Shown here: positions 4,958 through 61,796 of the stretch, piece by piece
Layout: the number at the start of each line of letters is the position of its first letter
Position numbering within the stretch: the stretch's first letter is position 1
NCBI GenBank assembly: GCA_046593035.1
Contig: JBKJSC010000265.1
Coordinates: forward strand, 2,816-66,815
Direction: 5' to 3'
DNA length: 64,000 bases
Source of the DNA: Limisphaerales bacterium
Lineage (GTDB): Bacteria; Verrucomicrobiota; Verrucomicrobiia; Limisphaerales; JAYTXL01
Notes under the pieces: generated by a model
Database searches by the model: none
Told to the model about the DNA's origin: nothing
Seen by the model: only the letters and a program-made list of their open reading frames with translations
Translations under genes and position numbers: made by a program

Positions 4958-4972
4958 GGGAGGCATTGTAGA

Positions 4973-5255: not shown

Positions 5256-5265
5256 TTATCCCGCC

Positions 5266-6156: not shown

Positions 6157-6159
6157 CTT

Positions 6160-6332: not shown

Positions 6333-6347
6333 TAGAATCTTCTTTCA

Positions 6348-7778: not shown

Positions 7779-7781
7779 TTT

Positions 7782-7870: not shown

Positions 7871-7891
7871 CAGACAGAATTGGATATTGAA

Positions 7892-8560: not shown

Positions 8561-9243
8561 ACAACGGCGGCACCGCAGGCAAGATGAACTTCGTCTATAC
8601 CGTCACCTGGTTGACGGGCCGGCTGCTTTACGCGACCTATTTTCGCTGGCGGGTGTTTCATCCGGAGCGCGTGCCGCTGACCGGGCCGGTGATTCTCGCG
8701 GCCAACCACGCCAGTTACATGGACCCGCCGCTCGTGGGCTGCGGCCTGCCACGCACGGTCAACTATCTCGCGCGCGAAAGCCTCTTCAAGAATCCCGTGT
8801 TTGGCTGGTTTCTACGCCAGCTCAGTTCGGTGCCCGTGGATCGCGATGGCGGCGGCGCGGCGGGCTTGCGCGCGATCATCAGCCGGCTCGAAGCAGGCGG
8901 GGTGATTCTGCTTTTCCCGGAAGGCACGCGCACGAGCGATGGAAAATTACAACCGGCGCGGTCGGGTATTGGACTGACGGTCATAAAATCCACCGCGCCC
9001 GTGGTGCCGGTGCGGGTGTTCGGGACTTACGACGCGTTTGGTCGGCACATGAAAATTCCCCGGCCCCGGCCCATCGCGGTGAAGTACGGAGAGCCGATGG
9101 TATTCGAAGCCTTGCGCGCGGAAGCCAAACGCTGCACCAAACCACGCTTGAAGGAAATTTACCAGCAGGTGGCCAACGAAATCATGGCGGCGATTGCGAA
9201 GCTGGAGGCGGCGAAGGACAAGGTGCCTGCAAACAACGCGTAG
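8557..9243 (+). CDS. plsC: 1-acyl-sn-glycerol-3-phosphate acyltransferase
   Basis: NHxxxxD motif (ANHASYMDPP) and FPEGTRT motif. ATGA start/stop overlap with cmk. Confidence 0.85.
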   Translation: MNNGGTAGKMNFVYTVTWLTGRLLYATYFRWRVFHPERVPLTGPVILAANHASYMDPPLVGCGLPRTVNYLARESLFKNPVFGWFLRQLSSVPVDRDGGGAAGLRAIISRLEAGGVILLFPEGTRTSDGKLQPARSGIGLTVIKSTAPVVPVRVFGTYDAFGRHMKIPRPRPIAVKYGEPMVFEALRAEAKRCTKPRLKEIYQQVANEIMAAIAKLEAAKDKVPANNA

Positions 9244-9261
9244 CCGCCGTGTCTCGCGGTG

Positions 9262-10428
9262 TTACTTGTGGTCAATGCCGACGGCTTGCCGCAACTCGGT
9301 CAGGCCGCGTTCGGCGAGCCGCATTCGCAGGCCTTCGACGATTTCCTTCACCACCGACGGGCCTTCATAAACCAGGCTGGTGTAAATCTGCACCAATGAC
9401 GCGCCGGCGGTGATTTTTTCCCACGCGTCGGCGGCGGTAAAAATCCCGCCGACTCCAATAATCGGCACCGTGCCATCCGTCTGGCGGTGGAGATGGCGGA
9501 TGACCTCCGTGCTGCGTGCGCGCAACGGCCGCCCGCTCAGGCCGCCGGTTTCCGAGTAGATGCGCTTGAGATCTTCATCGGTCGTCTCGGGCCGGGTGAT
9601 GGTTGTGTTTGTCGCCACGATCCCGGCGAGGCCGCGTGGCCCGGCGAGCGCGAGGATTTCATCCAGCGCCTCGAGCGCGAGGTCGGGGGCGACTTTCACG
9701 AGAATGGGTTTGGGCGAGTGCCGAATTTCATTTCCCCGGCCCTCGGCGCGCGCGATTCGACCATTGGCCGAATTGATTTCCTGCAACGCCGCCAGAATCT
9801 CATCCAGCGCCGCCTTGTCCTGAAGCTGGCGCAAGTTGGGCGTGTTGGGCGAGCTGACGTTGACGACGAAGAAATCGGCGAACGGCCAGAGCACGCGGAA
9901 TGAATTGGCATAGTCGCTGGCGGCCTGTTCCAGCGGGGTGGCTTTTGATTTGCCAAGGTTGATGCCGACCGGATGCGCGGGCCAGCGACCCAGTTGTTTC
10001 CACCTGGCGAGCTGCGCGGCCATGGCTTCGGCTCCGCCGTTGTTGAAGCCCATGCGGTTGATGAGTGCCTCGTCGTCCACCGCGCGGAACATGCGCGGCG
10101 CGGGATTGCCCGGCTGCGCCTGCCACGTAACGCCACCGAGTTCGCTGAAGCCGAAGCCGAGCGCGGGCCAGACGGGCACGGCGGCAGCGTGTTTGTCCAT
10201 GCCCGCCGCGAGGCCGACGGGATTGGGAAAGCGCAGGCCGAACAATTCGACCGCCAACTCCGGCGCGCTGAAAAATGCCGCCGTGGCATCACAAAGGATT
10301 TCGCGCCGGCTGGTCCAGCCGAGCGCCGCGAGCGTGCGGTTGTGGATCGCTTCCGACTCCTGAGAAAAGAGCACCGGGCGGATGAGATTGCGGTACAGCC
10401 AGCTCATGGCCCAAAAATATCTACTCAC
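9262..10428 (-). CDS. pyrD: Dihydroorotate dehydrogenase (quinone), class 2
   Basis: Motifs GFNNGG, NLGKSK, VNVSSPNTPNLRQLQ, VKVAPDL, ATNTT and GGLSG. The start may be the ATG at 10407 (MSWLYRNLIRPVLF). Confidence 0.9.
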   Translation of the reverse strand: MSRYFWAMSWLYRNLIRPVLFSQESEAIHNRTLAALGWTSRREILCDATAAFFSAPELAVELFGLRFPNPVGLAAGMDKHAAAVPVWPALGFGFSELGGVTWQAQPGNPAPRMFRAVDDEALINRMGFNNGGAEAMAAQLARWKQLGRWPAHPVGINLGKSKATPLEQAASDYANSFRVLWPFADFFVVNVSSPNTPNLRQLQDKAALDEILAALQEINSANGRIARAEGRGNEIRHSPKPILVKVAPDLALEALDEILALAGPRGLAGIVATNTTITRPETTDEDLKRIYSETGGLSGRPLRARSTEVIRHLHRQTDGTVPIIGVGGIFTAADAWEKITAGASLVQIYTSLVYEGPSVVKEIVEGLRMRLAERGLTELRQAVGIDHK

Positions 10429-10505
10429 CGGATTGAAGGCGAGGTTTGTATTCGCGCTGACGGTGGCGAATGAGTTTGAAATCGTTGCGCGACCCGGAGG
10501 AATAA

Positions 10506-10922
<417 letters not shown>

Positions 10923-10937
10923 TTTTGAATTTCCTTG

Positions 10938-10966
10938 TCCTCTGTTTTTGAGACAGGGGATTTTTG
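10938..10966 (+). terminator. Rho-independent terminator after glnB
   Basis: TCCTCTGT-TTTTGAG-ACAGGGGA is an 8-bp stem with one G-U pair, followed by TTTTTGT. Confidence 0.65.
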
Positions 10967-11013
10967 TCCGTGGCGATAATGAACACCAGGCCCGCAGCTA
11001 GAAACTACACACC

Positions 11014-12426
11014 ATGACCACCCCCAAGCAGGCAATAGAGACGGCGCGGAAAGCCGGGGCGAAAATGGTGGACGTGAAGTTCGTTGACACCTTTGGCACC
11101 TGGCAGCATTTCACGGTGCCTTTCAGCGAGCTGACTGAGGAGGTTTTCATCGACGGCTTCGGCTTTGACGGATCGAGCATCCGCGGCTGGAAGAGCATCG
11201 AGGCGTCGGACATGTTGGCGATACCTGATCCAAACACCGCATTCATCGATCCGTTCATGGCGGTGCCGACGCTGTCGTTGACGTGCATGATTGCCGAGAC
11301 GGGCACCAAGGAACCCTACAATCGCGACCCGCGCGGGATCGCCCAGCGCGGCGAGAAATATCTGGCTTCGACTGGGCTGGCCGACGCGGCAGTGTTTGGA
11401 CCGGAGGCGGAGTTCTTCATTTTTGACAACGTGCAGTTTGACTCGAAGAACAACGGGACGTTTTACTCGGTGGACAGCGAGGAAGCGGTGTGGAACACCG
11501 GCCGGGACGAAATGCCCAACCTCGGCAACAAGGTTCGGCACAAGGAAGGTTATTTCCCGGTGGGGCCGGTGGACACACAACAGGACATCCGCACGGAGAT
11601 GTGCCTGATCTTGGAGTCGTTAGGCATCAAAATTGAGCGGCAGCATCACGAAGTGGCGACGGCGGGGCAGGCGGAAATTGATTTTCGTTTCGACACGTTG
11701 GTCAAGACGGCCGACAACATGATGCTCTACAAGTACGTCATCAAGAACGTGGCCAAGCAGCATGGGAAAACGGCGACGTTCATGCCCAAGCCGCTGTATG
11801 GCGACAACGGATCGGGGATGCACACGCATCAATCCTTGTGGAAAAAGGGCAAGCCGCTGTTCGCGGGAAACGAATACGCGGGCTTGAGCCAGATGGCGCT
11901 TTATTACATTGGCGGCATTTTGAAACACGCGAGGGCGCTGTGCGGGCTGTGCAATCCGACCACCAACAGTTACAAGCGGCTGGTGCCAGGATACGAAGCG
12001 CCGGTGAACCTGGCCTACTCGGCCAGAAACCGTTCCGCCGCCATCCGCATTCCGACCTTCAGCGAAAACCCGAAGGCCAAACGCATCGAATATCGTCCGC
12101 CCGATCCGGCGGCCAATCCGTATCTCGCGTACACCGCGATGCTGATGGCGGGATTGGACGGTGTGCTCAACAAAATCGAACCGGGCGAGCCGTTGGACAA
12201 GAACCTTTACGAATTGCCGCCGGGCGAGTTGAAGAAAGTACCGCAAGTGCCGGGCAGTCTGGATGAGGCGCTCAATCACTTGGAGAAAGATCACGCGTTT
12301 CTGTTGAAGGGAGACGTGTTCACGGCAGACTTCCTGGAGATGTGGATCCATCACAAACGCAAAGAACACGACGCGATCCGGCTGCGCCCGCATCCGCACG
12401 AATTCTTCCTCTATTACGATGTCTAA
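11014..12426 (+). CDS. glnA: Glutamine synthetase type I
   Basis: 470 aa. Motifs [28 protein letters not shown] and the adenylylation-region NLYELP. Confidence 0.95.
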
Positions 12427-12857
12427 ATTATTTGGAAATTGCGAAATTGCCGCGTTCGTGGGGCATATTTTGCCCGCCGACAAATTCAAAAACACCCGAT
12501 TTTATTGGCCATTTGTGGCTGTTAATAACTTGCGAACAAGAGTTAATATGTTGTCCTCGTCACCATTCGCGACATTGTCTAAAAACTCCCCCGCATCCGG
12601 AGCGGTGAATGTTCGTGCCCTGTAGTGAACTGTGCAGCGGGAATTATTGCTTTTGAAATATTTGTAACATATTGAACATCAATTGTCTAAAACAATTCCA
12701 GGCGGCGCTAAAAACGCCCCAACCGCAGCCGAGGCTTGATTTTATTGTCGCGTGTGATTTGTCATCCTGTAAGCAACTGTAAAACGCAAAGTTACAAGCG
12801 GGTGTGGCGGTTAAGTGAATAAACTAGGATAATTTGCAAGTGGAAAAACGAAGTAAC
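12427..12857. other. Candidate oriC / dnaA control region
   Basis: About 430 bp non-coding spacer directly upstream of dnaA, visibly AT-richer than the window (for example 12640-12700). Exact direct repeats: ATTGTCTAAAA at 12574 and 12682, and GATTTTATTG at 12498 and 12738. Only imperfect DnaA-box-like sites are present (TGTGGCTGT at 12514, TGTGGCGGT at 12803). Confidence 0.4.
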
Positions 12858-14219
12858 ATGCAGGCATCTGTGGAAAAAATTTGGGCCACCGCGCGAGAAC
12901 AACTCCGCACGATGCTGAATGCCGACACCTACAACCTCTGGTTCGCACCGCTGCGCGCGACCGCGCTGGACACGAATTCCATCACCTTGGAGGTGGCGAA
13001 TGATTTTTGCGAAGTGTGGCTCAAGGACAATTATCTGGGGCTTTTGCAGGACGTTCTTTCTCGCGCCGCGAACAATCCTTTGCAGGTCAAATTCAAAGTG
13101 GCGGCGGGACACGAAGCGGCGTCACCGTCCGCCGTTGGGGTCGCAGCAAAAACTAAAGTGGCGGAGGAGCCGACGCCGCGTGGCGCTTCCAACGGTGAGC
13201 CGATTTTTAATCCCAAGAATACCTTCGACACGTTCGTGGTCGGCAACAACAACAACTTCGCCCACGCGGCCGCACTCGCCGTCGCGCAGGCACCCGGTAA
13301 ATCCTACAACCCGCTTTTTCTCTACGGTGGCGTGGGTTTGGGCAAAACCCATCTCCTCCATGCCATCGGCCAATACGTCGCCAGCCACAAGAAAGGTGCG
13401 CGCGTGGCCTATTTGTCGTCGGAAAAATTTACCAATGAATACATTGATGCGATTCAGAACAGCCAGCTCGTGCGCTTTAGGAAAAAATACCGGCAGACCG
13501 ATGTGCTGTTGATCGACGACATCCAGTTCCTCGCCGGCAAGGAGCGCATTCAGGAGGAATTTTTCCACACGTTCAACGCCCTGCATGAGGCGCACAAGCA
13601 GATCGTGCTCACCTGTGACCGGCCCGCCAGCGAGATCCAAAACCTGGAGCATCGCCTAGTGTCCCGCTTTGAATGGGGTTTGGTGACCGACCTTCAACTG
13701 CCCGATGTCGAAACCCGCCTCGCCATTCTGCACAAGAAGGCGAAATTGATGGGCGTGGAGTTGCCGCCCGAGATCCTGGATTTTCTGGCCAACCGGATTC
13801 GCACCAACATCCGCCGGCTGGAAGGTGCATTGACACGCGTGGCTTCCTACGCCTCGCTCACCGGAAAAATATTATCCCTCGAAGTGGTGGAGAGCCTGCT
13901 ACGCGAAGTGCTCCACGAAGAAGGGCGCTTTACGATCAACATCGATGTCATCCAGAAAAAGGTGGCCGAGCATTTTGATATCCGGCTCGCCGACATGACC
14001 AGCAAACGCCGGCCGGAGAACATCGCTTTTCCGCGGCAGATCGCCATGTTCCTCGCCCGGCAGATGACCGAAAGTTCGCTCAACACCATCGGCGAGGCCT
14101 TCGGCGGGCGCGACCACGGTACGGTTTTGCATGCCTGCCGACTGGTCAAAGGCCGCATGGAAGTCGATGCCAACGTGCGCCAGGTGGTCCACTATCTGGA
14201 AAAGCATTTGCAGCGTTGA
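12858..14219 (+). CDS. dnaA: Chromosomal replication initiator protein DnaA
   Basis: Walker A GGVGLGKTHLLHAIG, Walker B LLIDDIQF, sensor/box VII, and the C-terminal DNA-binding helix RQIAMFLAR. ATG 12858 is preferred over TTG 12834. Confidence 0.95.
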   Translation: MQASVEKIWATAREQLRTMLNADTYNLWFAPLRATALDTNSITLEVANDFCEVWLKDNYLGLLQDVLSRAANNPLQVKFKVAAGHEAASPSAVGVAAKTKVAEEPTPRGASNGEPIFNPKNTFDTFVVGNNNNFAHAAALAVAQAPGKSYNPLFLYGGVGLGKTHLLHAIGQYVASHKKGARVAYLSSEKFTNEYIDAIQNSQLVRFRKKYRQTDVLLIDDIQFLAGKERIQEEFFHTFNALHEAHKQIVLTCDRPASEIQNLEHRLVSRFEWGLVTDLQLPDVETRLAILHKKAKLMGVELPPEILDFLANRIRTNIRRLEGALTRVASYASLTGKILSLEVVESLLREVLHEEGRFTINIDVIQKKVAEHFDIRLADMTSKRRPENIAFPRQIAMFLARQMTESSLNTIGEAFGGRDHGTVLHACRLVKGRMEVDANVRQVVHYLEKHLQR

Positions 14220-21545: not shown

Positions 21546-21635
21546 TGGCGGAAGGGGAGGGATTCGAACCCCCGGTGACGCAAGCGCCACGGCGGTTTAG
21601 TAAACCGCTGCTATAGACCACTCAGCCACCCTTCC
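21546..21635 (-). tRNA. Class II (long variable arm) Ser-type tRNA; anticodon reads ACU by eye (expected GCU)
   Basis: Hand-folded cloverleaf on the minus strand: GGAAGGG-TG-GCT-GAGTGGTCTAT-AGC-A-GCGGT-TTACTAA-ACCGC-CGTGGCGCTTGCGTCACC-GGGGG-TTCGAAT-CCCTC-CCCTTCC-G-CCA. It has a 7/5 acceptor/T geometry, an 18-nt variable arm, discriminator G73 and an encoded CCA. Confidence 0.85.
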
Positions 21636-21693: not shown

Positions 21694-23133
<1,440 letters not shown>

Positions 23134-23186
23134 GGTCAGGCCCAGCTCGCGGCGAAAGTGATTTTCGAGATTCATAAAAAGCGTTG

Positions 23187-26100
23187 TCAGCCTTTGGTGA
23201 GAGTTTCATCCAGATTCAGCAGCATGTTGCCCACCGCCGTCCACGCCGCCATTTCGCTCGGATCCAACCCGGCGGGCACCGGCGATTCGCCGACTGTTAA
23301 CAACGCGGCGGCGGCGGTTTTGTCCTGCTGATAACGTTTCAATTCCTGCTGATACACTTTCGCCATGATTTCGAGTTCTTTCGGCTTGGGCGCGCGAGCG
23401 AGTGTCAGGCGAAAGGCGTACGTCAGCCGCTGGTTCAATTCAGTGCCGCCCTCCTTCAGCACCCGTTGCGCGAGACCGCGCGCGGCTTCCACATACGCGG
23501 GATCATTCAACGCCACGAGTGCCTGCAACGGAGTGCTCGTGCGTGGCCGCTCGGCGGTGCAAACTTCGCGGTTGGGAGCGTCGAAGGTGATCAGCGACGG
23601 ATACGGACGCGAGCGTTTCCAATACGTGTAAATCCCGCGCCGGTACAAGTCCGCGCCCTTGCTCGGCGTGTAACTTACTCCCGCCACTTCCTCCCACAAT
23701 CCAGGCGGCTGGTAAGGAAACACGCTCGGTCCGCCAATCTTGCGGTTAAGCAGGCCGCCAATGGCCAGCGCGTTGTCGCGGATCACCTCGGCGTCGAGCC
23801 GGAAACGCGGGCCGCGCGCATAAAGCCGGTTGTAGGGATCGCTCTCCAAAACTTTCCTGCTCACGACTGTGGATTGCCGGTAGGTCGCGGACATCGCCAT
23901 CATTTTGACCATCGCCTTCACGTCCCATTTGCGCGCCATGAACTCCGTGGCCAGCCAGTCGAGCAACTCCGGATGGCTCGGCCATTCGCCTTGCGATCCG
24001 AAATCGTTCGTGGTCTTTACAATGCCGGTGCCGAAGAACATCTGCCAGTAGCGGTTGAGGGTTACGCGGCTCGTGGTGGGATGTTCCGGGGACACCAGCC
24101 ATTTGGCCAGCGCTAGGCGGTTGGCCGGCTGGCCTTCCGGCAGCGGCGGCAGGCTCTTCGGGACGGCGGCGGTCACCACGTCGCCACGCGCGCGAAAATC
24201 ACCGCGCATCAGGATTTGCGTTTTGCGCGGCGACGGCAATTCTTCCATAACCATCGTCGAATCAATTCGCAAATTCAGCGCATCGCTTTCCGCGCGCAAA
24301 CGCGCCGGTTCCTTCTGGAGCGCGATCAGTTCCGCCGTGTAATTGTCGCGGTAGAATTGTTTCAATTCGTTTTTCTGTGCATCGCTGCGCTTGTCGGCGG
24401 GCGTGTTCAGAACCGTCAGCACGGGACCGCTGGCGATAAAATCAACTTCCAGTGGGTCGAGCACGCGGTTGTAAACCCGCAGGTCATCAATCACGCCGTT
24501 GAAACCCAGATCACTCCGCCGCTGGCCGATGTGGAGCGAAAGCGGCGTCCGGATCGTCGCCGAAAGCGCATCCTTCTCGACATCCACCGCGCGCAGTTTT
24601 GCGTTCACGTAAATTTTTAAACCCGCCGCCTTGCTCGAGCCGTCGTAGGTCACGAGCACATGCTGCCAGGTGTTCGTGGGGATGGTTTCCTTGGTGCTGA
24701 CCTTGAGCGCGTTCTCCGGCCATTTATTGATGAGGTGCACCGCAATCTTGCCATCGAAGGCGAGCAGGTCGAAACCGCGATAGGCATTGGTGGAACTGCC
24801 GTCCTCCATTTTGGAAATGACCGTGCCGCCCTTGTCCGCCACCTTGATCCAGGCGCTGATCGCAAACACATTGGTGCGCTCGAAATCTCCGACATTACCC
24901 AAATCCACGTGACCGCCTCTACCGTCGAGTTGCAATCCTTTGCCGGATTTGCCCTCCGCCCACACCGGAGCGGGCGCACCTTGAAAAGTTCCCGCGCCCA
25001 ATTTGCCCGCCGTGTCCGTCGTCGTGCCTTCAAACTCAAAGCGCGCCAACAGGCCTTCGCCCGCCGTGGATTGCGACACTTTGCTCAACGCGTCCACTTC
25101 CCATTTGGCCTGCGCGGCAGGCAACGCGGCTTCCAAATCCTTGATGCGCTTCTCGCTCTCCGGGATTTTCCGTGCATACTCGTCCTGCTTCGCCTTTTCT
25201 TCGGGCGTGGGAAATTTGATGTAGGGCACCGCATTGTCCGCGCGGCTGGGCATCCCGACTTCATTCACGTTGTTGAAGAAAGCGTAGAACTGGTAAAATT
25301 CCTTTTGCGTGAAGGGATCGTATTTGTGGTCGTGACATTCCGCGCAACCAAAGGTAGTGCCCAGCCAGACGGTGGCCGTGGTGGTGACGCGGTCGATGAT
25401 GTATTTCGTAAAATATTCGTCTGGATCGGCCCCACCCTCGTCAGTCACCATGTTGTTCCGGTTGAAACCGCTCGCAATTCTCTGGGCCAGTGTGGTGTTG
25501 GGCAGCAAATCACCAGCGAGCTGCTCGACCGTGAACTGGTCAAACGGCTTGTTGTCGTTGAACGCCTGGATGACCCATTCGCGCCAGCGCCACATGCTGC
25601 GATGCGTGTCGGCATGGTAACCGTGCGTGTCGGCATACCGCGCGAGGTCGAGCCATTGCTGCGCCATGCGCTCGCCGAATTGCGGCGCGGCCAGCAAACG
25701 ATCAACGAGCTTCTCATACGCGTTGCTGGAAGTGTCGGCCACGAACGCGTCCACCTCGGCGAGAGTGGGCGGCAGCCCCGTCAGGTCCAGCGTGAGCCGA
25801 CGAATCAGGGTGACCCGATCCGCTTCAGCGGAGGGCTTGAGACCGGCTTTTTCTAGGCGCGCCAAAATGAAGATGTCGATTTCATTGCGCGCCCATTTTT
25901 TGTCTTTGACGACAGGCACTGGCGGGCGTTCCGGTTTCACGTAGGCCCAGTGCCCCGACCACTTCGCGCCCTGGTCGATCCAGCGGCGCAGCAAATCAAT
26001 CTGCGCCTTGGAAAGATGCTTGCCCGTTTCGAGCGGCGGCATGATGTCGTCCGGGTTTTTGGTTGCAACCCGCTTGAAAACATCGCTCCTGGCCGCCTTG

Positions 26101-26378
26101 CCTGGCGCGATGGCGAAACCGCCACCGGCCAGCTTCTTGAGCGCCTCCTCCTTCACGTCCAGCCGCAGGCCAGCCTTGCGCTTGTTCTGGTCGGGGCCGT
26201 GGCAGGCGTAGCAATTCTCGGAAAAGATCGGCCGGATGTCGCGGTTGTAATCGATGGCCCCGGCAGGCACCGCACCGAGGACTTCGCAAACCAATGGAGC
26301 CAGCAACCAGCCGACCATCATCCACCACGCTGGCTGGATTCGCCAGCGACGAGACTTCGCATCAATATTCAACTTCAT
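23187..26378 (-). CDS. PSCyt1 (planctomycete cytochrome c) + DUF1549 + LamG-like + DUF1553 protein
   Basis: [33 protein letters not shown] (CxxCH). [20 protein letters not shown]...[15 protein letters not shown] (DUF1549). Central LamG-like block ending in [12 protein letters not shown]-terminal DUF1553-like region. Start taken at ATG 26378. Confidence 0.85.
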
Positions 26379-26496
26379 GGCAAGGGCGGAAAATAACGCC
26401 GGAGATTGCCGATGGCAATTCCCTAAAGCGTCCAAGCTGGACGAGTGGAGCGGGCCGAAAATTCAGCTTCGCCCAAAAAAACGGACACTCCCGATC

Positions 26497-52503: not shown

Positions 52504-53637
52504 TCACTTTTTCGCGGAACCGGCGGACTCCATTTCCTTGAGCAAGGCCGCCACGGCTTCATGCACGTCCGCGCCGGGAACGCCCTTGAAGCGGATCACA
52601 CCTTTGGCGTCGAGAACGTGAAAGGTGGGCCAGGCAAGATTGTTCCATTGCGTTGCGATGGGGCCGGAGGTGTTGCCGCCGTCCCACCAATTGCGCCAGG
52701 TCATCTGTTCGCGCTTCATCGCTGAACGGGCGCGTTCCTTGGGATCGGTGTTCACGCCAACGAGCGCGAACGGTTTGCCTTCAAATTGTCTCACGAGCGA
52801 CCGCTCGTGGGGGTAATTAGCCCGGCACGGTCCTCACCAATCGCCCCAGAAGACGATCGCGGTGACTTTGCCGCGATAGTCGCTCAACTTGAGCTTCTGT
52901 CCCTCCACATCCTCACCCTCCGTCTCCGGCGCGACTTTGCCGACACTCAGGTAACGCAGGTCATACAATTCCCGCTTCGCCATCTCCACCGGGCTGCGGC
53001 GACCGCTTTTGCCGCTGGCGGCCGCGGCGATGAATTTGTCGTAAAACATTTCCGCCTCGGCGCTCATTTTTTCCGGGGCAGTGCTCTTGATTTTCGCAAT
53101 CAACTCCTTGCCGTTGATTAATTCCAAGGCTTCCCGGTCCACGGCTTCCTTGCTCTGCTGCCATTTGACCCAGAGTTGAAACTGCTGGTTGAGCGTGTGG
53201 GCCAGGTGATAAGTCGCTTCGGTTTGCAGTCCGGCGTCGGGATTCTTTTCCGTGATGGCGCGGAGCAATTTTTCCACCGCGACTGTGGGCGGCAAATCCG
53301 CCAACGGGCGAAAGATCACCCCAAGCTTCGGACTCTGGGCGTGATCGCGTTGCAACAAGTTCAAAGCTTGTTCCACCAGATCGGAGCCGTCGGAATCATT
53401 CGTCACGACCCAGAGCAATGCGTCCGCGCCAGCGGGGTCTTTGGGGTGGCTGCGCGCCATTTCCAGAATACGCCCGGCGTGGGCCTCGAACTTCGCTGAA
53501 TTCGGCGCGGCCTGTATTTCCTGGAGCAAGGCTTGCAAATTCGCCGCCGACTCCGCCGCACGCGGCGAGGGCGCGAAGGCCAGCAGCGTCAGGAGGAGCA
53601 AGAGAGCTAAAGGTTGGTTTGAAAAACGGTGCGGCAT
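52504..53637 (-). CDS. TlpA/ResA-like exported thiol:disulfide oxidoreductase, predicted selenoprotein (paralogue A; TGA 52834-52836 read as Sec in W-U-G-P-C)
   Basis: ORF 52834..53637 ends ...KVTAIVFWGDW-TGA. The same frame continues GPCRANYPHERSLVRQFEGKPFALVGVNTD... to the stop at 52504. The total of 1134 nt is a multiple of 3. Signal peptide MPHRFSNQPLALLLLLTLLAFAPSPRA, then a helical N-domain and a thioredoxin-fold C-domain. Confidence 0.75.
52792..52809 (-). promoter_or_regulatory. Candidate SECIS hairpin, paralogue A
   Basis: The mRNA sequence CACGAGC-GGUC-GCUCGUG is a 7-bp perfect stem with a tetraloop. It starts 24 nt after the UGA and is identical in all three paralogues. Confidence 0.6.
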
Positions 53638-53677
53638 AGCGATGCGTAATTACTGGCGGTTCATTCCAACAAAGCAA

Positions 53678-54766
53678 TCATTTCTTCTCAGCCCCTGCTT
53701 TCTCCATTTCCTTTAGCAGCGCGTCCACCGCACGATCCATTTCCTCGCCGCGAACGTTCTTGTAGCGGATCACGCCTTTGGCATCGAGGACGTAGATCGT
53801 CGGCCAGCCGTGGACATCATACTTGGTCGCGATGGGACCGCCGGTGGTTCCGCCGTCCCAGAAGGAGCGCCAGGTGATGTTCTCACGTTTCAAAGCGGCC
53901 TCGACTTTGTCCTTGGGATCGCTGTTGACGCCGAGGAGCGCGAAGGGTTTGTTTTCGAGCCGTTTCACGAGCGACCGCTCGTGAGGGTACATGGCCCGGC
54001 ACGGGGGTCACCAGTCGCCCCAGAAATCAATCGCCACCACCTTGCCGCGATAATCACTCAACTTGAAAGCCTTTCCCTGGATGTCCACGCCCGCAATGTC
54101 CGGTGCCACCTTGCCGATGCCAAAAACGCGGTCTTGCTCCAGTTCCTTTTTGGCGAATTCGCCCATCGTGCCCCGGGAGTATTTGAGGTCGCCGAATTTT
54201 TCGATGAGGAGGTTGAGATATTTTTCAGCTTCCACCGGCGCGCTGCTCTTGAGCAATTGCGCCAGGCTCAGGCAGGCCTGGCCCTGCATCTCGCGCTGCG
54301 GATTCTTTTCCAAAACTGCCTTGAGCAATCGCTCCGCCGCCGGACCGCGCGAGTAGCCTGCGCGCTGGCAAACGCCCGCCAGTTTGTCGCTGTTGGCATG
54401 ATCTTTCGCGAGCGTGTCCAGCGCCTTGGCGGCTTCGGGCGATTGATAGCCAAAGGTGGCCACCCAGATGAGCGCGTCCAGCGCCGCCGGGTCTTTGGGG
54501 GTTTTCCCGGCGAGTTCCATGAAGCGCCCGGCCAATTTCTCCGGTCGCGGTCGCTGCTCGTCCGTCACCTTTTTTTTCTCCTCGGTCGTCTTGGCTTCGC
54601 GCAAGGCTTTGGAATATTCCTGCGACGCGGTGGTGTACTCTTTCACCAGTGCGCGGTATTGATCTGCTGGCGACAGATCGTCCGCTGCCCGAAGCGAAGT
54701 GCTCGCGCAGAGCAGGAGCAGCGGCAACGTTCGCGCCGCGAGCCGAAGTGAGGGAAGTGTTTTCAT
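53678..54766 (-). CDS. TlpA/ResA-like exported thiol:disulfide oxidoreductase, predicted selenoprotein (paralogue B; TGA 54008-54010 read as Sec in W-U-P-P-C)
   Basis: ORF 54008..54766 ends ...KVVAIDFWGDW-TGA. The frame continues PPCRAMYPHERSLVKRLENKPFALLGVNSD.... The total is 1089 nt in frame. Signal peptide MKTLPSLRLAARTLPLLLLCASTSLRA. Confidence 0.75.
53966..53983 (-). promoter_or_regulatory. Candidate SECIS hairpin, paralogue B
   Basis: The same CACGAGCGGUCGCUCGUG hairpin, 24 nt after the UGA. Confidence 0.6.
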
Positions 54767-54799
54767 AGTGTTGTAAGTCTGGCGAGGTTTGGCGCAAAT

Positions 54800-55924
54800 C
54801 TATTTCTTGGCCGTGCTGCCTGCTTCCGCTTCCTTGAGCAGCGCGTCCACGGAATGATCCATCGTGTCATCGCCGGGCGAACCGACCCATTTGTGGCGGA
54901 TCACTCCTTTGTGGTCGATCACATAGAGCGTCGGCCACCCACGGGTGTTCCACTTGCTGGCAATCGGTCCGCTGGTGTTGCCGCCGTCCCACCAGGAACG
55001 CCAGGTCATGTTTTCCTTTTTTAGAACTTCCTTCAGCTTCTCCTTGGGGTCGCTGTTGACGCCGAGGATCACAAAGGGTTTGCCCGCCAGCCGTTTCACG
55101 AGCGACCGCTCGTGGGGATACATCGCCTTGCACGGCCCTCACCAATCGCCCCAGAAGTCGATCAACACCACCTTGCCACGATACTCGCTCAACTTGAACG
55201 CCTTTCCCTCCACGTCCTGCCCTTCAATCTCCGGTGCCGGCTTGCCGACACCGAGGGTGCGAATCTCGAACAATGCCGCCTTGGCCTGGTTCACCAACGG
55301 ACTGGGATTCCCTTGAACGCGGCCAAACTTGTTGATGACTTGCTCGAAATACTCCTCCGCTTGCTTGTCCTTGCCGGGCTGGCCTTGGAGAATTTTCGCC
55401 AGGCTGAACGTGGCCTGGCCCTGCACATCCTGATGCGGGTTCTGGGCGATGATGTCTCGCAACTGTTTCTCGGTCTGCGGCGATGGCGAGTAAGCTAGGC
55501 TCTGGCAAAGCAGACCCAACTTCTCGCTCTGGAGGTGGTCTTTCATCAGAATGCCCATCGCCTTCTCGACTTCTTCTCCGAGCCGGACGCTGGTAACCAA
55601 CCAGATGAGGGCGTCGACCGCGGCGGGGTCTTGGGGATTCTTTTGCGCCAGTTCCAGGAAACGTCCGGCGTATTTCTGCGGCTGCGGGTACGTCGCCGCG
55701 ATTTTTCTGCGCTCCTCATCCGTCTTGACCGTTTGGTACGCTTTGAAAAAATCCTCCTGCGCTTTTTGAAATTCCTGCGTCAACTCCTGATACTGCGCCG
55801 ACGGCGACAGTGCGGCGACCGGTTTCTCCACTGCGCTGGCAGCGGAGGGGAACGCAAGGACGAGCGAGAGTGAAAGCAGCGCCAGCACGGTGCCGGTGAG
55901 GCGCGGGGAAATGGGAGTTCTCAT
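54800..55924 (-). CDS. TlpA/ResA-like exported thiol:disulfide oxidoreductase, predicted selenoprotein (paralogue C; TGA 55139-55141 read as Sec in W-U-G-P-C)
   Basis: ORF 55139..56125 ends ...KVVLIDFWGDW-TGA. The frame continues GPCKAMYPHERSLVKRLAGKPFVILGVNSD.... Start taken at ATG 55924 (MRTPISPRLTGTVLALLSLSLVLAFPSAASA). The total is 1125 nt in frame. Confidence 0.75.
55097..55114 (-). promoter_or_regulatory. Candidate SECIS hairpin, paralogue C
   Basis: The same CACGAGCGGUCGCUCGUG hairpin, 24 nt after the UGA. Confidence 0.6.
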
Positions 55925-56003: not shown

Positions 56004-57392
56004 TTACGGCACGCTTCCAACCGAAGCCGGTTCGGAGGCGCGCGAGTCCGTTGGCCGGGTTCGCCGCAGGCACGCCACGTAAGCGCCATCGACGCCTTCA
56101 ACGAAGGGGAGCAGCTCGCGTTCATTCTCCAATTGGAAGTCGGCGTGGGCGGCGAGAAATTGTTTCACGGCTTCTCCATTCTCCTCCGGCTCCAGGCTGC
56201 AAGTGCTGTAAACGAGCGTGCCACCGGGTTTCAATCGGGGCGCGGCGTGGCGGAGAATTTCCAACTGTTCGGCGCGGAGGCGTTCGATCTCCTCGGGCTG
56301 GATGCGCCAGCGCAAATCAATACGGCGACGGATGACGCCCGAGTTGGAGCAGGGCGCGTCCACCAGGATGCGGTCAAAGCGTTTGGCGGGACTCGCGATG
56401 AAGGCGTTGGGCGCGACGGAAATTTCCACGCAGGTAACGCCGAGGCGCGCGCAATTTTCATGAATCAAAGCGAGCCGTTCTGGCTGGTTGTCCTGGGCGA
56501 ATATTTTGCCGCGATTTTGCATCCGCTGCGCGATGAAGGTGGTCTTGCCGCCGGGCGCAGCGCAGAGGTCGAGCACGCTTTCGCCGGGCTGCGGGTTGAG
56601 TTCGTGGACGGCGAGCAACGTGCTGGGGTCTTGGATGTAAAACCAACCCGACTTAAAACTCCGCAGACCGGCCAAAGGCGGGTGCGATTCGAGTTGAAAC
56701 ACCAGCCCGTCGCCGGTCCAATCCCAACTGCGCGCGGCGAATTTGACGCCTTCCTTCTGCCATTGCGCGGCGAGCGCGGCGGCATCGGTCTTCAAGGTGT
56801 TGAGCCGAGCGAAGGTCGTGGACGGCGTGTTGTTCGCCCCGAGCAACTGCGCGGTTTTCTCCGCGCCCCAGCGGCTGGTCCAGCGCTGGCAAAGCCATTC
56901 TGGATGCGAGTAACCGAGGTGCGGCTGCGCAATTTTCAATTGCTGCAAGAGTTCCTCCGTGGGCACGCGTTCGCGGGTGTAACCGCGCAGCACGGCGTTG
57001 ACGAAGCCGGCCTGCGGGCCGAAGCCGAGCGTTTTGGCCAGCTCGACCGTTTCGTGAACGGCGGCGTGGTTGGGCACGCGGTCGAGCCAGAACATCTGGT
57101 ACAGGCCGAGCCGCAGCAAAATCTGGAGCGCCGGTTTCTGTTCGCGGCCCTCGGTCTTGCGTGCGATGAGCCAGTCGAGCGTGGTTTGCCAGCGGACGAT
57201 GCCATAGACCAGTTCCTGGCAAAGCCCGCGATCCACGGGCGAGAGCGGCGTTTGCGCCAGCTCGTTTTCGAGCAGAGTTTCTGTGTAATCCGCGCCCGTC
57301 TCGCGTTGCCGCAGGACATTGACCGCAATTTCTCTTGGTTTTTGCTGATGCACTGAGTAATAATGCCCGACGCTCAAGTTTAATCGAGTCAT
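56004..57392 (-). CDS. rsmB: 16S rRNA (cytosine967-C5)-methyltransferase
   Basis: NusB-like N-domain, SAM motif VLDLCAAPGGKT, catalytic DAPCSNSG and STCS. Confidence 0.85.
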   Translation of the reverse strand: MTRLNLSVGHYYSVHQQKPREIAVNVLRQRETGADYTETLLENELAQTPLSPVDRGLCQELVYGIVRWQTTLDWLIARKTEGREQKPALQILLRLGLYQMFWLDRVPNHAAVHETVELAKTLGFGPQAGFVNAVLRGYTRERVPTEELLQQLKIAQPHLGYSHPEWLCQRWTSRWGAEKTAQLLGANNTPSTTFARLNTLKTDAAALAAQWQKEGVKFAARSWDWTGDGLVFQLESHPPLAGLRSFKSGWFYIQDPSTLLAVHELNPQPGESVLDLCAAPGGKTTFIAQRMQNRGKIFAQDNQPERLALIHENCARLGVTCVEISVAPNAFIASPAKRFDRILVDAPCSNSGVIRRRIDLRWRIQPEEIERLRAEQLEILRHAAPRLKPGGTLVYSTCSLEPEENGEAVKQFLAAHADFQLENERELLPFVEGVDGAYVACLRRTRPTDSRASEPASVGSVP

Positions 57393-57403
57393 TTAGAGAA
57401 TCT

Positions 57404-59233
57404 ATGAAAGAAGAGTTCGAGAAGATGGTCGTCGCCGGCAAGATCAACCGCCAGCATGTGGAACCGCTGGTATTGCTCGCCAAGGGCGGGTATTGCACGC
57501 ACCGTAGCTGGGGCTTTGGAAAGATCACCACGGTGGACACGGTATTTGGCCGGTTCACCATTGATTTCCCCGGCAAAGCAGGCCACTCGATGGATCTAGC
57601 CTTCGCGGCGGAATCGCTCAAGCCGATTCCCAGCGACCACGTCCTCGCCCGGAAGTCATCGGACTTGGCCTCGCTCCGGCAAATGGCGGCATTGCACCAT
57701 CTGGACTTGATCAAGCTCGTTCTGCAAAGTTACGGCGGCCGCGCCACCCCGGATCAAATCCAGCAGACGCTAGTGCCGGATGTGATTGCGGACGATTGGA
57801 AGAAATGGTGGGAAGTGGCCAAGCGGGAGTTGAAGAAGGACGGCCATTTCCAGGTGTCGCTCAAGAAAACCGACCCGATCATTTATCAAACGCTGGAAAT
57901 CTCGTTGCAAGAGCGGTTGCTCGGCGAATTCCGCGCGGCCAAAGGACTGAAGGCGCGGCTCACTGTCGCCAATGAAATTCTCAAGAACATTGCCGACCTG
58001 AGCGACAAGCAGGCCGCCGCCACCGAGGCGGTCGCGGCGTTGAACGTGGAAATCGCCACACATCAGCGCACGCAACCGGCGCTGGCGCTGGAGGCGATCT
58101 TTGTCCGCAATGACATCCAGGAGGCCGCCGGAATGGCTACGGCGGAGGGCGACATCGCCGCCAGCTCCATCTGGTTGCAAAACCTGAAGCTCGGCCAGTT
58201 GGTGGAGCAAATGCCCGCCGCCAAGCACAAGCGCGCCTTGCAATCCTTTCAAGAGGCGAACCCGACGCTGTGGTATGAGGCGTTGCTTACGATTTTGAAC
58301 ACCGTGCCCGCCAAGTTGTGCGGCGAATGCGCCCACTTGCTTATCCATAACGGCAAGCTCACCCAACTCAAGGAAACACTGGCGCGGCTCATCAGCCAGC
58401 ACCAGGCCAGCAGCGAACTCCTGCTCTGGCTGGCCAAGGAACGCTCCGATTCCTTCGCCGACATCCTCGGGCCGGAAGTGTTCCGCGCCATGCTGACGGC
58501 GATGGAACGCGACCAGTTTAACGAGAAGAAATCCAACCGTCTGCGGGATTTGATTCTCGACGACCAAAGCCTGCTGCTCGAATTAATCGGTTCCGCCGAC
58601 ATCGAAGTGATCAAGGATTTGACGCGCGCGCTGCAATTGTCGCCGAGCTTCGACGACATGGACAAGCGTTCGCTGCTGGCACGCATCGTAAAAAGTTTTC
58701 CGCTCGTCCAATCGCTCATCACCGGCGAGCAGACCAAACAGGAGGCAATGCTCATCGTTTCCTGGGAAAGCCTGGAACGGCGCAAAAACGAATACGCCGA
58801 ACTGGTGCAGAAGAAAATTCCGGCCAACTCCAAGGAGATTGCCATCGCCCGCAGCTACGGCGACTTGCGCGAAAACCACGAATACAAGGCCGCCAAGGAA
58901 ATGCAGAAACTGCTCATGCGCCAGAAGGCGGAACTGGAAACCCAGTTGGGCCGCGCGCGCGGCACTGATTTTGCCAACATCAAAACCGACCTCGTCAGCG
59001 TCGGCACCAAAGTTAAAGTCACCGACTTGAACAGTCAGCAGGCCGAAACGTTTGCGGTGCTCGGTGCGTGGGATTCCAATCCCGAATCGGGGATCATCAG
59101 CTACCTCAGCCCCGTCGCGCAATCGCTGCTCAACCGCAAGGTCGGCGAGGAAGTGGATTTCGAGCTCGACGCGGTCAAGAAGCGTTACCGCATCGACTCG
59201 ATTGAGGCCACCAAACCGGGGCAAGGCCAGTGA
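57404..59233 (+). CDS. Large GreA/GreB-C-terminal-domain protein with an N-terminal CarD/TRCF-RID-like segment
   Basis: The C-terminus has GDLRENHEYKAAKEMQ...VSVGTKVKVTDL...ISYLSPVAQSLLNRKVGEEV (the GreA C-terminal FKBP-like domain). The N-terminus has GYCTHRSWGFGKITTVD...FTIDF, reminiscent of the CarD-like RNAP-interacting domain. There is a helical linker of about 400 aa. Confidence 0.7.
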   Translation: MKEEFEKMVVAGKINRQHVEPLVLLAKGGYCTHRSWGFGKITTVDTVFGRFTIDFPGKAGHSMDLAFAAESLKPIPSDHVLARKSSDLASLRQMAALHHLDLIKLVLQSYGGRATPDQIQQTLVPDVIADDWKKWWEVAKRELKKDGHFQVSLKKTDPIIYQTLEISLQERLLGEFRAAKGLKARLTVANEILKNIADLSDKQAAATEAVAALNVEIATHQRTQPALALEAIFVRNDIQEAAGMATAEGDIAASSIWLQNLKLGQLVEQMPAAKHKRALQSFQEANPTLWYEALLTILNTVPAKLCGECAHLLIHNGKLTQLKETLARLISQHQASSELLLWLAKERSDSFADILGPEVFRAMLTAMERDQFNEKKSNRLRDLILDDQSLLLELIGSADIEVIKDLTRALQLSPSFDDMDKRSLLARIVKSFPLVQSLITGEQTKQEAMLIVSWESLERRKNEYAELVQKKIPANSKEIAIARSYGDLRENHEYKAAKEMQKLLMRQKAELETQLGRARGTDFANIKTDLVSVGTKVKVTDLNSQQAETFAVLGAWDSNPESGIISYLSPVAQSLLNRKVGEEVDFELDAVKKRYRIDSIEATKPGQGQ

Positions 59234-59617: not shown

Positions 59618-60556
59618 TCATTTGGCCGTCGCGGCCTTGACCATCTCGGCCACGAAATCGTTCACCTTCCATTCGTTACCGACGAAGACCTGCTGCACCC
59701 GGCCCTGCGCATCCACCACGACGGTGCGGAGCTTGTGGTTGAAATTAAACGACGAGCCGGCTTCGCGGAAAAATTCCAGACCGAATTGCTCGGTGATCGC
59801 GTCGATCTCAATGAGCGCACCCGTGACGAAATTCCATTTCTCCGGGTCGTATTGATAGCGCCGCGCGTATGCCTTCAACGTCGCGGGTGTGTCATATTCC
59901 GGATCAAAGGAGATGGAAAGCAGCCGCCAGTTTTTCGGTCCGTCAGGCCGGGCGCTCAATTGTTTGTAGGCCGCCGCAAAGTTTTCCGTCATGCGCGGAC
60001 AGAAAGTCGGAAACGGACAGCGCGTAAAAATAAAAGTGAAACCCACCGCCTGACCCTTGAACTCCTGCAGGCTGACGGCCTGCCCCAGTTCGTTGGTGAA
60101 CGGGTAATTCGGCATCAGGTCGCCCACTTTCAATGGCTCCACTTCGCGGACACGGCGGAAAGTGGTCTGCGGTTTCGCGGCAGCGGGGGCGGCCTTGCCA
60201 ACCTTGGTCACGCGGTCGATCCAGGCATCGTCTTTCGTCACCAACATGCGGAAAAATATAGAATCGCCCGGTTGCAAGCCCGCCAATTCCTTCGGTTCCT
60301 TGACCTCCAGAGGCATGGTCATCGCCTCCATGTAATTTGGAATGGCCTCGTGCTTGACCACCGCCGTCCTGCCATCCGGTAACAATTCTTCCACCACGCC
60401 GCGGACGAAGAATGTCTGCAAATTTGTTGCTACTTGGTTCGTGGCGATGGCCGGCACGCGCACGGGCGCGGTCGTCTGCGAATTCTCGCGACAGGAAATA
60501 GCCGCACCGGCCAGCAGCAGCGCGGCCACCCAGGGAAATAGTTTTGCACGCAACAT
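59618..60556 (-). CDS. SCO1/SenC-family copper chaperone fused to an N-terminal CusF-like Met-rich copper-binding domain
   Basis: Signal/lipoprotein-like N-terminus (LLAGAAISC). The CusF-like segment is VVKHEAIPNYMEAMTMPLEV. The SCO thioredoxin fold is FIFTRCPFPTFCPRM...LLSISFDPEYDTP. Start at ATG 60556. Confidence 0.75.
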   Translation of the reverse strand: MLRAKLFPWVAALLLAGAAISCRENSQTTAPVRVPAIATNQVATNLQTFFVRGVVEELLPDGRTAVVKHEAIPNYMEAMTMPLEVKEPKELAGLQPGDSIFFRMLVTKDDAWIDRVTKVGKAAPAAAKPQTTFRRVREVEPLKVGDLMPNYPFTNELGQAVSLQEFKGQAVGFTFIFTRCPFPTFCPRMTENFAAAYKQLSARPDGPKNWRLLSISFDPEYDTPATLKAYARRYQYDPEKWNFVTGALIEIDAITEQFGLEFFREAGSSFNFNHKLRTVVVDAQGRVQQVFVGNEWKVNDFVAEMVKAATAK

Positions 60557-60665
60557 AAGAACCGATGCAGTTTCACTGTTTGGACTACGCTTTGGCAAGA
60601 CTGCACAAACACAAACCGGGACGGCAATTCTTTGACAGCCTGCGGCCAAACCGTATCCTTGCGCC

Positions 60666-61796
60666 ATGCGCGTTGTGAAAGTCCCCCTGGGCGGGCGGAG
60701 CTATCGTATCCTCATCGGCGGCGGCTTACTGGCGTGTCTCGGCACCGAGTGCGCGCGGCTGAAACTGGGCTGGCGTTGCGCTGTGATTTCCGACCGCCAC
60801 GTCGCGCCCCGCTATGGCAAGTCGGTGATGCAATCGCTCCGGGCCGCCGGCTTCGAACCGGTGGCGATCACCGTGCCCGCCGGTGAAACAGCCAAGAGTC
60901 TGGCGACGGTTGCGGCGTGCTACGATCAATTGGCCGCGCACCATATGGAACGCCAGTCGTTCATCATCGCGCTGGGCGGCGGCGTGGTGGGCGATCTCGC
61001 GGGGTTCGTCGCCGCGACTTATCTGCGCGGCATCCCGTTCGTGCAAGTGCCCACGACCTTGCTGGCTCAGGTGGACAGCTCGGTCGGCGGCAAAGTCGGC
61101 GTCAATTTGCGGGCCGGCAAAAACCTCGTCGGCGCATTTTACCAACCACGGCTCGTGCTCTGCGATCTCGACACCTTGGGCACTCTGCCGGTGCGGGAAC
61201 TGCGCGCCGGACTGGCCGAGGTTATCAAATACGGCATCATTTACGACGTGAAACTTTTTGCGCGTCTCGAACGCGATCTCCCCCGGTTGCTCGCCCGCGA
61301 GCCGAAGACCCTCGCCGCCGTCATCGCCCGCTGCTGCGAAATCAAAGCCGAGGTGGTGGGCCAGGACGAAACCGAGGGCGGCCTGCGCGCGATTTTGAAT
61401 TTCGGCCACACCATCGGCCACGCGATCGAGAATATTTCCGGCTATGGAAAATATCTGCACGGCGAGGCCATTTCCATTGGTCAGGTCGCGGCGGCAAAAC
61501 TTTCCACGGAGTTGCTGGGCCTGCACGGCGCGGAACTGGAGCGCATCACGAACTTGTTCGCGCAAGCAGGATTGCCCACGCAAATCAAACTCTCCGCCGC
61601 GCAACGCAGACGAATTCTCGCCGCGATGAAGCTCGACAAAAAAGTCAGCCACGGCGAAGTCAAATTCGTCCTCGCCGAAAAGATCGGAAAAGTCCGTTGG
61701 GGCCAAAGCGTGCCGCCGGCACTCATCGCCCAGGCTCTCCACGCCGAACTTTCGCCTGCAACCAACTGCTCCACGCCAAGGGCATCGATGCCGTGA
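60666..61796 (+). CDS. aroB: 3-dehydroquinate synthase
   Basis: GGGVVGDLAGFVAATYLRGIPFVQVPTTLLAQVDSSVGGKVGVN, NFGHTIGHAIE and HGEAISIG. Confidence 0.9.
   Translation: MRVVKVPLGGRSYRILIGGGLLACLGTECARLKLGWRCAVISDRHVAPRYGKSVMQSLRAAGFEPVAITVPAGETAKSLATVAACYDQLAAHHMERQSFIIALGGGVVGDLAGFVAATYLRGIPFVQVPTTLLAQVDSSVGGKVGVNLRAGKNLVGAFYQPRLVLCDLDTLGTLPVRELRAGLAEVIKYGIIYDVKLFARLERDLPRLLAREPKTLAAVIARCCEIKAEVVGQDETEGGLRAILNFGHTIGHAIENISGYGKYLHGEAISIGQVAAAKLSTELLGLHGAELERITNLFAQAGLPTQIKLSAAQRRRILAAMKLDKKVSHGEVKFVLAEKIGKVRWGQSVPPALIAQALHAELSPATNCSTPRASMP

Follow-up and report, generated by a model that had tools for sequence, protein, structure and literature searches.

Three tandem genes in a 64-kb stretch of DNA from a Limisphaerales bacterium (64,000 nucleotides of contig JBKJSC010000265.1, here called the window) are predicted to encode exported TlpA-like selenoproteins, in which an in-frame UGA specifies selenocysteine (Sec) and is followed by a selenocysteine insertion sequence (SECIS) hairpin. 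The probability of this overall explanation is put at about 0.85. An initial annotation of the window, made from the sequence alone, had proposed that UGA encodes Sec at the nucleophilic Cys of these proteins, which are designated g1, g2 and g3. Support for its proposal came from the alignment of Cys and Sec among relatives, a hairpin that agrees with the bacterial SECIS (bSECIS) model, the invariance of this hairpin at synonymous sites across 125 relatives with TGA and its rarity among those with a Cys codon, purifying selection downstream of the TGA, and a sel island beside an orthologue. Sec decoding of the UGAs in g1-g3 is, as a prediction from sequence, very likely; confidence in export and in a reductase role is lower.

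Active-site UGA codons in three tandem genes

The three tandem frames described in the initial annotation, with one TGA each and joined lengths that are multiples of three, were all present at the coordinates and with the lengths listed in Table 1. Each gene contains exactly one internal stop, always TGA, and has a normal stop at its end, and translation of all three confirmed that the internal stop lies within FWGDW-TGA-(G/P)PC. The genes are co-oriented with intergenic gaps of 33 and 41 nt, and the flanking rsmB and larA-like genes are on the same strand. The start of g3 is the one given by the gene caller in a database protein (P0001). When all six frames were scanned for pairs of coding-like open reading frames (ORFs) joined by a single stop, only the TGAs of g1-g3 were internal and the other matches were ordinary gene boundaries. 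A promoter and terminator scan found nothing on the coding strand. Identity among the paralogues is 44% over the N-terminal part and 62-65% over the C-terminal part; judged from their sequences, they are old. Automated annotators had been expected to split such genes, and they do: public gene calls consist of 261-278-aa fragments named "peroxiredoxin family" or "redoxin domain" together with separate C-terminal pieces.

The C-terminal domain has the TlpA-like thioredoxin fold that had been proposed, on which Pfam, the sequence search against PDB and the structural match of a modeled homologue agree. Pfam AhpC-TSA, Redoxin and Thioredoxin_8 cover the C-terminal 120-135 residues of g1-g3 above their cut-offs (E 1e-18 to 1e-21), with AhpC-TSA matching residues 232-350 of g1 (3.4e-18) and 217-335 of g2 (1.6e-21), and AhpC-TSA (3.3e-21) and Redoxin (3.4e-17) matching residues 226-362 of g3. 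A phmmer search against PDB aligned W-[U]-GPC to WCVPC of Bradyrhizobium TlpA (1jfu, E 1.5e-14) and to WCPPC of 3kcm (E 8.6e-18). The UGA column is a nearly invariant Cys (C262) in an alignment of 71 sequences (A2) that includes 70 full-length homologues, and the cis-Pro loop G-W-P-T is conserved (P331 in the alignment). The TGA column thus corresponds to the active-site Cys both in TlpA (1jfu) and across the ~70 full-length homologues, as the initial annotation had anticipated. The AlphaFold2 (AF2) model of a close Cys homologue (P0015; predicted local distance difference test score, pLDDT, 94.4) has 12 helices in its N-terminal domain and a thioredoxin fold C-terminal to them; this C-terminal domain matched ResA/TlpA-like structures with target-normalized template modeling (TM) scores of 0.85-0.89.

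The N-terminal part of g3 was modeled by AF2 with a pLDDT of 89. A fold search with the N-terminal domain gave no match at E <= 0.001, and its resemblance to TPR proteins is weak (YbgF TPR, E 0.024; KLC2 TPR, TM 0.41). The models point to an all-alpha, TPR-like domain of ~190 residues. The N-termini of all three proteins resemble Sec-type signal peptides by eye, with one to three basic residues, a hydrophobic run of 13-24 residues and then xRA|A or ASA|V. The part of the initial annotation that assigned signal peptides therefore stood as far as these features go, whereas export itself is presumed.

Several established families were considered and rejected as the identity of g1-g3. Peroxiredoxins are recognized by a peroxidatic Cys or Sec within PxxxTxxC/U (PMC13188914). 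This motif is not present in g1-g3 and the active site, FWGDW-U-xPC, is of the CxxC type, so the peroxiredoxin names carried by public fragments are misleading. The scores obtained with the NCBIfam models for TlpA proper (NF047696, 49-52 bits against a cut-off of 230) and ResA proper (NF002854, 53-67 bits against a cut-off of 170) indicate that g1-g3 are not orthologues of TlpA or ResA. The NCBIfam search as a whole gave only sub-threshold matches, to ResA, TlpA, DsbE and three thioredoxin-fold selenoprotein models.

The predicted SECIS hairpin and its conservation among relatives

A SECIS had been expected at 52780-52840, 53955-54015 and 55085-55145, and each of these intervals contains a hairpin that fits the model. 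An identical 18-nt sequence, CACGAGCGGTCGCTCGTG, starts 24 nt after the TGA in each of g1-g3 and forms a 7-bp stem with a GGUC loop; this hairpin is the sole element common to the three predicted folds. The bSECIS model specifies a loop of 3-9 nt, an upper stem of 4-16 bp, a G within the first two positions of the loop, a UGA-to-loop distance of 16-37 nt, and a minimum free energy (MFE) of <= -7.5 kcal/mol (PMC13188914). The hairpin falls within all of these limits, with a loop of 4 nt, a 7-bp stem, an apical loop at 31 nt and, when the 18 nt are folded in isolation, an MFE of -10.5 kcal/mol. The window contains just three exact copies of its 12-nt core, GAGCGGTCGCTC, one after each TGA. With one mismatch allowed there were four matches against 0.72 expected, and none of 100 shuffles reached four.

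The same arrangement is common in other species. A homologue search with g3 as the query, in which U was written as C, gave 1985 matches. Eighteen of the best 120 of these terminate exactly at ...DFWG(D/H)W, and most of the others have C-x-x-C at this position, most commonly CGPC. Species-representative genomes were then scanned with the DNA pattern FWG[DH]W-TGA-xPC, which contains no base of the hairpin. The pattern was found in at least 119 genomic stretches, against roughly one match expected by chance on an estimate that assumes uniform base composition. In nearly all of the matches listed, the frame runs ~100-115 codons past the TGA and the same hairpin is found at the same distance. Eighty titled records among the matches listed comprise ~61 from Planctomycetota, nine from Verrucomicrobiota and 10 from other or unclassified bins.

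The hairpin is constrained at synonymous sites. The codons for H-E-R-S-L are CAC GAG CGG TCG CTC in 98-100% of the 125 distinct TGA-bearing instances (entropy 0-0.17 bit), whereas entropies are 1.3-2.1 bit at Leu, Ser and Gly positions of these genes that are just as well conserved but lie outside the hairpin. Codon bias was ruled out as the cause because CGG, TCG and CTC are not dominant at other positions in these genes, being minority or co-dominant codons there. In the TGA-bearing instances the Val codon varies freely at its third position, which reduces the constrained core to ACGAGC-GGUC-GCUCGU.

No Cys-type paralogue with the strict motif was present in the fetched genome loci, and the Cys control was therefore drawn from a metagenome scan with the same pattern carrying TGY, supplemented by look-ups of four individual homologues. 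The scan gave 103 distinct instances with very diverse downstream sequences; an exact hairpin was present in only a single instance (L235) and a decayed one in only one other (L218). Among the individual homologues, two close Cys forms have the exact hairpin, CACGAGCGGTCGCTCGTG, behind TGC (L241, 3771; L242, 3768), and two others have one or two changes in it (L243, 3807; L244, 4467). Judged from their sequences, these hairpin-bearing Cys forms fit either a fossil SECIS left after a recent conversion of Sec to Cys or a pre-adapted sequence. The peptide PHER-x-LV, with S, E, A or D at x, is also common in Cys homologues, and the hairpin therefore appears to be built on a helix conserved throughout the family. 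The preferred codons for His-Glu and Leu-Val (CAC GAG ... CTC GTG) are natural reverse complements. That some Cys forms retain intact or decaying hairpins suggests that the family toggles often, and possibly reversibly, between Sec and Cys, or that the Sec allele has spread horizontally. We tentatively propose that a fixed SECIS cassette of 16-18 nt is present in more than 120 species of Planctomycetota and Verrucomicrobiota and that the family is pre-adapted for switching between Cys and Sec through one change of TGC to TGA or back, although we doubt this more than we credit it. If true, the family would be a natural system for studying the origin and loss of selenoproteins.

The nearest orthologues of the three genes are in Verrucomicrobia and Limisphaerales metagenome-assembled genomes (MAGs; 57-61% identity). 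The nearest orthologue of g2, in a Verrucomicrobia MAG (L008), is 59% identical and likewise has UPPC. At least five other genomes have tandem pairs of this family, so that the description of three adjacent exported Sec paralogues as unusual was overstated. The same applies to the view that extracytoplasmic Sec is unusual, as TlpA-, DsbA- and DsbG-like UxxC selenoproteins, each of which has exported proteins as homologues, are in the literature (PMC1088965, PMC1794560, PMC13188914). Two further sequences were observed during these comparisons. In a 368-aa protein from a JGI metagenome contig (P0011), the post-UGA half of a paralogue, starting with MYPHERSLV..., continues in an uninterrupted frame into the N-terminal half of the following paralogue, and the protein ends with ...DFWGHW. 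Its sequence suggests either that a stop was lost or that a tandem pair with two Sec codons has been fused into a single frame. A gene in a Planctomycetota MAG (L052, 5057) has FWGDW-TGA-GPC followed by a different downstream sequence and the hairpin GCGGCA-GUC-UGCCGC, and probably represents another thioredoxin-fold selenoprotein subfamily with its own SECIS.

The sequence downstream of the TGA evolves as translated protein. The ratio of nonsynonymous to synonymous substitution rates (dN/dS) between g1, g2 and g3 was 0.23-0.30 downstream of the TGA, below the 0.33-0.42 found upstream, and synonymous sites are saturated between the paralogues (dS 0.9-1.8). Genomic context in a relative also argues for Sec decoding: in a Verrucomicrobia MAG (GCA_016200005.1, locus L002), a complete sel island is immediately followed by an orthologue with 61% identity to g3 (Table 1). 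In this record selD is annotated with Sec, yet the TlpA-like gene is split into two calls. The SelW-like gene of the island has the hairpin CCGUC-GGUCU-GACGG, showing that GGUC loops recur in this lineage. A tRNA-Sec is near the gene in one further locus (L082).

Table 1. Coordinates of the predicted selenoprotein genes and their elements, the sel island of a relative, and other genes of the window
Feature	Position (strand)	Description
g1 selenoprotein gene	52504-53637 (-)	1134 nt, 377 aa, U268, active site W-U-G-P-C (translation)
g2 selenoprotein gene	53678-54766 (-)	1089 nt, 362 aa, U253, active site W-U-P-P-C (translation)
g3 selenoprotein gene	54800-55924 (-)	1125 nt, 374 aa, U262, active site W-U-G-P-C (translation)
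g1 predicted Sec codon UGA	52834-52836 (-)	context ...AIVFWGDW*GPCRANYPHERSLV
g2 predicted Sec codon UGA	54008-54010 (-)	context ...AIDFWGDW*PPCRAMYPHERSLV
g3 predicted Sec codon UGA	55139-55141 (-)	context ...LIDFWGDW*GPCKAMYPHERSLV
g1 candidate SECIS hairpin	52792-52809 (-)	18 nt identical to g2 and g3
g2 candidate SECIS hairpin	53966-53983 (-)	18 nt identical to g1 and g3
g3 candidate SECIS hairpin	55097-55114 (-)	CACGAGC-GGUC-GCUCGUG, encodes H-E-R-S-L-V
g1 putative signal peptide	about 53557-53637 (-)	analogous to that of g3
g2 putative signal peptide	about 54686-54766 (-)	analogous to that of g3
g3 putative signal peptide	55832-55924 (-)	residues 1-31, ...PSAASA|VEK; charge and hydrophobic-run count
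L002 sel island	4877-11149	contig JACQFP010000064.1; SelW/Rdx-like gene, tRNA-Sec, selD, selA, selB, TlpA-like Sec gene
L002 SelW/Rdx-like gene	TGA at 4913	C-S-V-U
L002 tRNA-Sec	5272-5368	
L002 selD	TGA at 5542	own in-frame TGA (SSCAG-U-ASK)
tRNA-Ser-type gene	21546-21635 (-)	90 nt
CusF-like and Sco1/SenC fusion	59618-60667 (-)	~3.7 kb from the cluster
GreA/GreB ORF	57335-59233 (+)	632 aa
dnaA and marker pair	12834-14219 (+), 23187-26435 (-), 21694-23175 (-)	

Proposed decoding and rival explanations

The pre-protein would consist of a Sec-type signal peptide, the TPR-like domain of ~190 residues and a TlpA/ResA-like thioredoxin-fold domain in which the nucleophilic first residue of W-C-x-P-C is encoded by UGA. 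A complex of SelB, GTP and Sec-tRNA(Sec) would bind the mRNA hairpin (C)ACGAGC-GGUC-GCUCGU(G) and deliver Sec at the UGA, after which the ribosome would continue for another 109-112 codons. The full-length protein would then be exported, and the selenolate/thiol pair of U-x-P-C would reduce or exchange disulfides of extracytoplasmic clients. The protein would then be recycled by a CcdA/DsbD-type membrane electron donor, and the TPR-like domain probably selects partners. We infer Sec insertion in the host organism, as well as the electron donor.

Several observations weigh against this scheme or against parts of it. No selA, selB, selC or selD was found in the window by ARAGORN and by Pfam scans of ~45 ORFs. 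The Pfam scans found housekeeping genes and genes typical of Planctomycetota and Verrucomicrobiota, and the sole tRNA found by ARAGORN was a tRNA-Ser. Adjacency to sel genes was seen in one organism only among the fetched loci, that of L002 (L003 and L004 are short duplicate contigs with the same selB), and the rsmB and larA-like genes that flank g1-g3 are not shared by any fetched locus. Covariation in the hairpin is nearly nil, with one compensatory pair in 2 of 125 sequences (C-G to U-A in L112 and L092) and five G-U wobbles; the few variants mostly keep pairing, and covariation exceeds shuffle controls on few measures, the helix hardly varying. As the hairpin lacks appreciable covariation, structural support comes from its invariance and its fit to the model. 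Whole 70-nt regions fold no better than shuffles (z -0.85, -1.5 and +0.4). Rfam SECIS families were not matched, either in the window at gathering thresholds or in 52504-55924 at E <= 10; the single Rfam match was a spurious fragment of a long noncoding RNA. Part of the sequence conservation must be at the protein level, since PHER-x-LV is common in Cys homologues. The proposals for export, redox direction and clients are taken from knowledge of the family only.

Gene callers and public annotation report g1-g3 as separate fragments, which would suit pseudogenes created by nonsense mutation, or halves made separately with the C-terminal half starting at the ATG of ...AMYPHER, an in-frame codon that g2 and g3 have five codons past the TGA. 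This explanation is hardly credible, given that the same TGA is at the same codon in three paralogues despite saturated synonymous sites (dS about 0.9-1.8) and in at least 119 genomic stretches of other species. Purifying selection acts on the post-TGA parts, g1 encodes Asn rather than Met where the ATG start is supposed, and a lone C-terminal half would have neither a signal peptide nor the first active-site residue. UGA is the leakiest stop codon, and the sel genes of the host are not among the genes of the 64-kb window; both would agree with read-through other than as Sec, in which a near-cognate tRNA inserts Trp or Cys, or the codon is reassigned, and the hairpin is a generic stimulator. 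Such read-through is very improbable, if marginally less so than pseudogenes. The UGA occupies the site of the catalytic Cys, and a Trp there would be incompatible with function; the hairpin bears the G-G/U apical-loop signature of a SECIS bound by SelB; and a relative (L002) carries the complete sel island beside its orthologue. Nor is TGA reassigned, since it terminates about half of the window's coding-like ORFs.

Sec insertion in bacteria competes with release factor 2, and g1-g3 might have a selenium-dependent dual output, consisting of a truncated, exported TPR-like protein and the full-length selenoprotein in a ratio set by the supply of selenium. A separate role for the truncated product is conceivable. 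Besides the competition with release factor 2, the N-terminal domain is an independent, confidently modeled helical module and is itself under purifying selection (dN/dS 0.33-0.42), which would be consistent with dual output. Of the thioredoxin fold, however, the product terminated at the UGA would include only the first strands, which is unlikely as a functional design. Dual output is accordingly considered unlikely, and it would be a refinement of Sec decoding rather than an alternative to it. Decoding of the UGAs as Sec, aided by the hairpin, remains the preferred explanation of g1-g3.

Relation to known selenoproteins and neighboring genes

The genes g1-g3 belong to a known kind of selenoprotein and represent at most a poorly catalogued subfamily, as descriptions of TlpA-like UxxC proteins date back to 2005 and a 2016 study listed split candidates from a planctomycete. 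From 2005-2006 onward, selenoproteins with a thioredoxin fold and UxxC were predicted, among them the families "thiol-disulfide isomerase-like protein," "Prx-like thiol:disulfide oxidoreductase," and "thiol:disulfide interchange protein" (PMC1088965, PMC1794560). The Sargasso Sea metagenome provided the first prediction of the TlpA-like UxxC family ("thiol-disulfide isomerase-like," cd02966; PMC1088965). A 2026 review includes this family, together with a UGC-containing TlpA family, among more than 110 families and lists it in its Table 1 as "predicted with high confidence" (PMC13188914). The cd02966 family shares with g1-g3 the TlpA-like fold, Sec in place of the first Cys of CxxC, widespread Cys homologues and a prediction based on Cys/Sec pairing together with a SECIS. 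In contrast, g1-g3 have the TPR-like domain of ~190 residues, a fixed FWG(D/H)W-U-(G/P)PC-RAMYPHERSLV and a nearly invariant hairpin, and their relatives are concentrated in Planctomycetota and Verrucomicrobiota; the two groups are likened here by description.

Split candidates were reported from the planctomycete P1 as "thiol-disulfide isomerase-like thioredoxin," "peroxiredoxin," and "AhpC/TSA," with their closest Cys homologues in Singulisphaera and, for two of them, the bSECISearch result "SECIS: no" (Kim et al., 2016; PMC4807772, Table S9). They resemble g1-g3 in consisting of adjacent fragments joined by an in-frame UGA, and their phylum is that of most relatives found here; g1-g3 differ in having an explicit hairpin, and this likeness too is by description only. 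A Singulisphaera TlpA-family protein (P0118) was among the homologues of g3.

TlpA and ResA are extracytoplasmic thiol:disulfide reductases. Bradyrhizobium TlpA (1jfu, 4txo) and Bacillus ResA (1st9) have the same fold, W-C-x-P-C geometry and cis-Pro loop as g1-g3, which differ in having Sec for Cys and a TPR-like N-terminal domain in place of a simple membrane anchor. The SECIS of E. coli fdhF has a GGUC apical loop and a bulged U. Compared with that element, the hairpin of g1-g3 is much shorter (6-7-bp stem) and has no bulged U. It shares with the fdhF SECIS and the bSECIS consensus (PMC13188914, Fig. 2) a position within the coding sequence shortly after the UGA, an apical loop that begins with G-G/U and a UGA-to-loop spacing of 16-37 nt, and differs from both in that its sequence is essentially fixed across two phyla.

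The ResA-like model with WAxxUGC (NF041054) and the thioredoxin-fold model with TUGYCR (NF053656) are of the same fold class as g1-g3, whose motif is WUxPC. Both were rejected because of their different motifs and scores (26-37 and 19.9 bits, with cut-offs of 300 and 100, respectively), as was TsoB (NF045694; 16-20 bits against 805), whose motif also differs. A literature search for the motif strings WUGPC and UPPC returned nothing relevant. No NCBIfam or Rfam model reaches its cut-off on g1-g3, and judging from these searches a model of the subfamily is uncatalogued.

Other genes of the window were noted in passing. A fusion of a CusF-like copper-binding domain with Sco1/SenC is encoded near the cluster. 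Bradyrhizobium TlpA reduces ScoI, and by analogy the Sco1/SenC-CusF protein is a conceivable client of g1-g3, although its proximity may be coincidental. The tRNA-Ser-type gene has a 7-nt anticodon loop, UUACUAA, with the anticodon ACU. Bacterial AGY-serine tRNAs normally carry GCU, and A34 is thus unusual. The last ~160 residues of a 632-aa ORF match GreA/GreB (N- and C-terminal domains), and its 470-residue N-terminal extension had no Pfam match; the start of the ORF overlaps the start region of rsmB on the opposite strand, and its true start may therefore be further downstream. The presence of dnaA in the window suggests that the chromosomal origin may be nearby. The window also contains a gene pair, PSCyt1/PSCyt2/PSD1 and DUF1501, that is typical of the Planctomycetota-Verrucomicrobiota group and, taken with the nearest orthologues, suggests that the host belongs to Verrucomicrobiota.

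The finding leaves knowledge of selenocysteine insertion itself unchanged. It adds three predicted exported, selenol-based disulfide reductases to one organism, and provides an unusually clean example of a SECIS, in which constraint can be read at synonymous sites and Cys-form relatives keep or lose the hairpin. At least 100 similar genes of Planctomycetota and Verrucomicrobiota stand annotated as truncated "peroxiredoxin" or "redoxin" fragments. A family model that combines FWG(D/H)W-U-xPC with the hairpin would mend many of these annotations and raise the selenoprotein count in both phyla.

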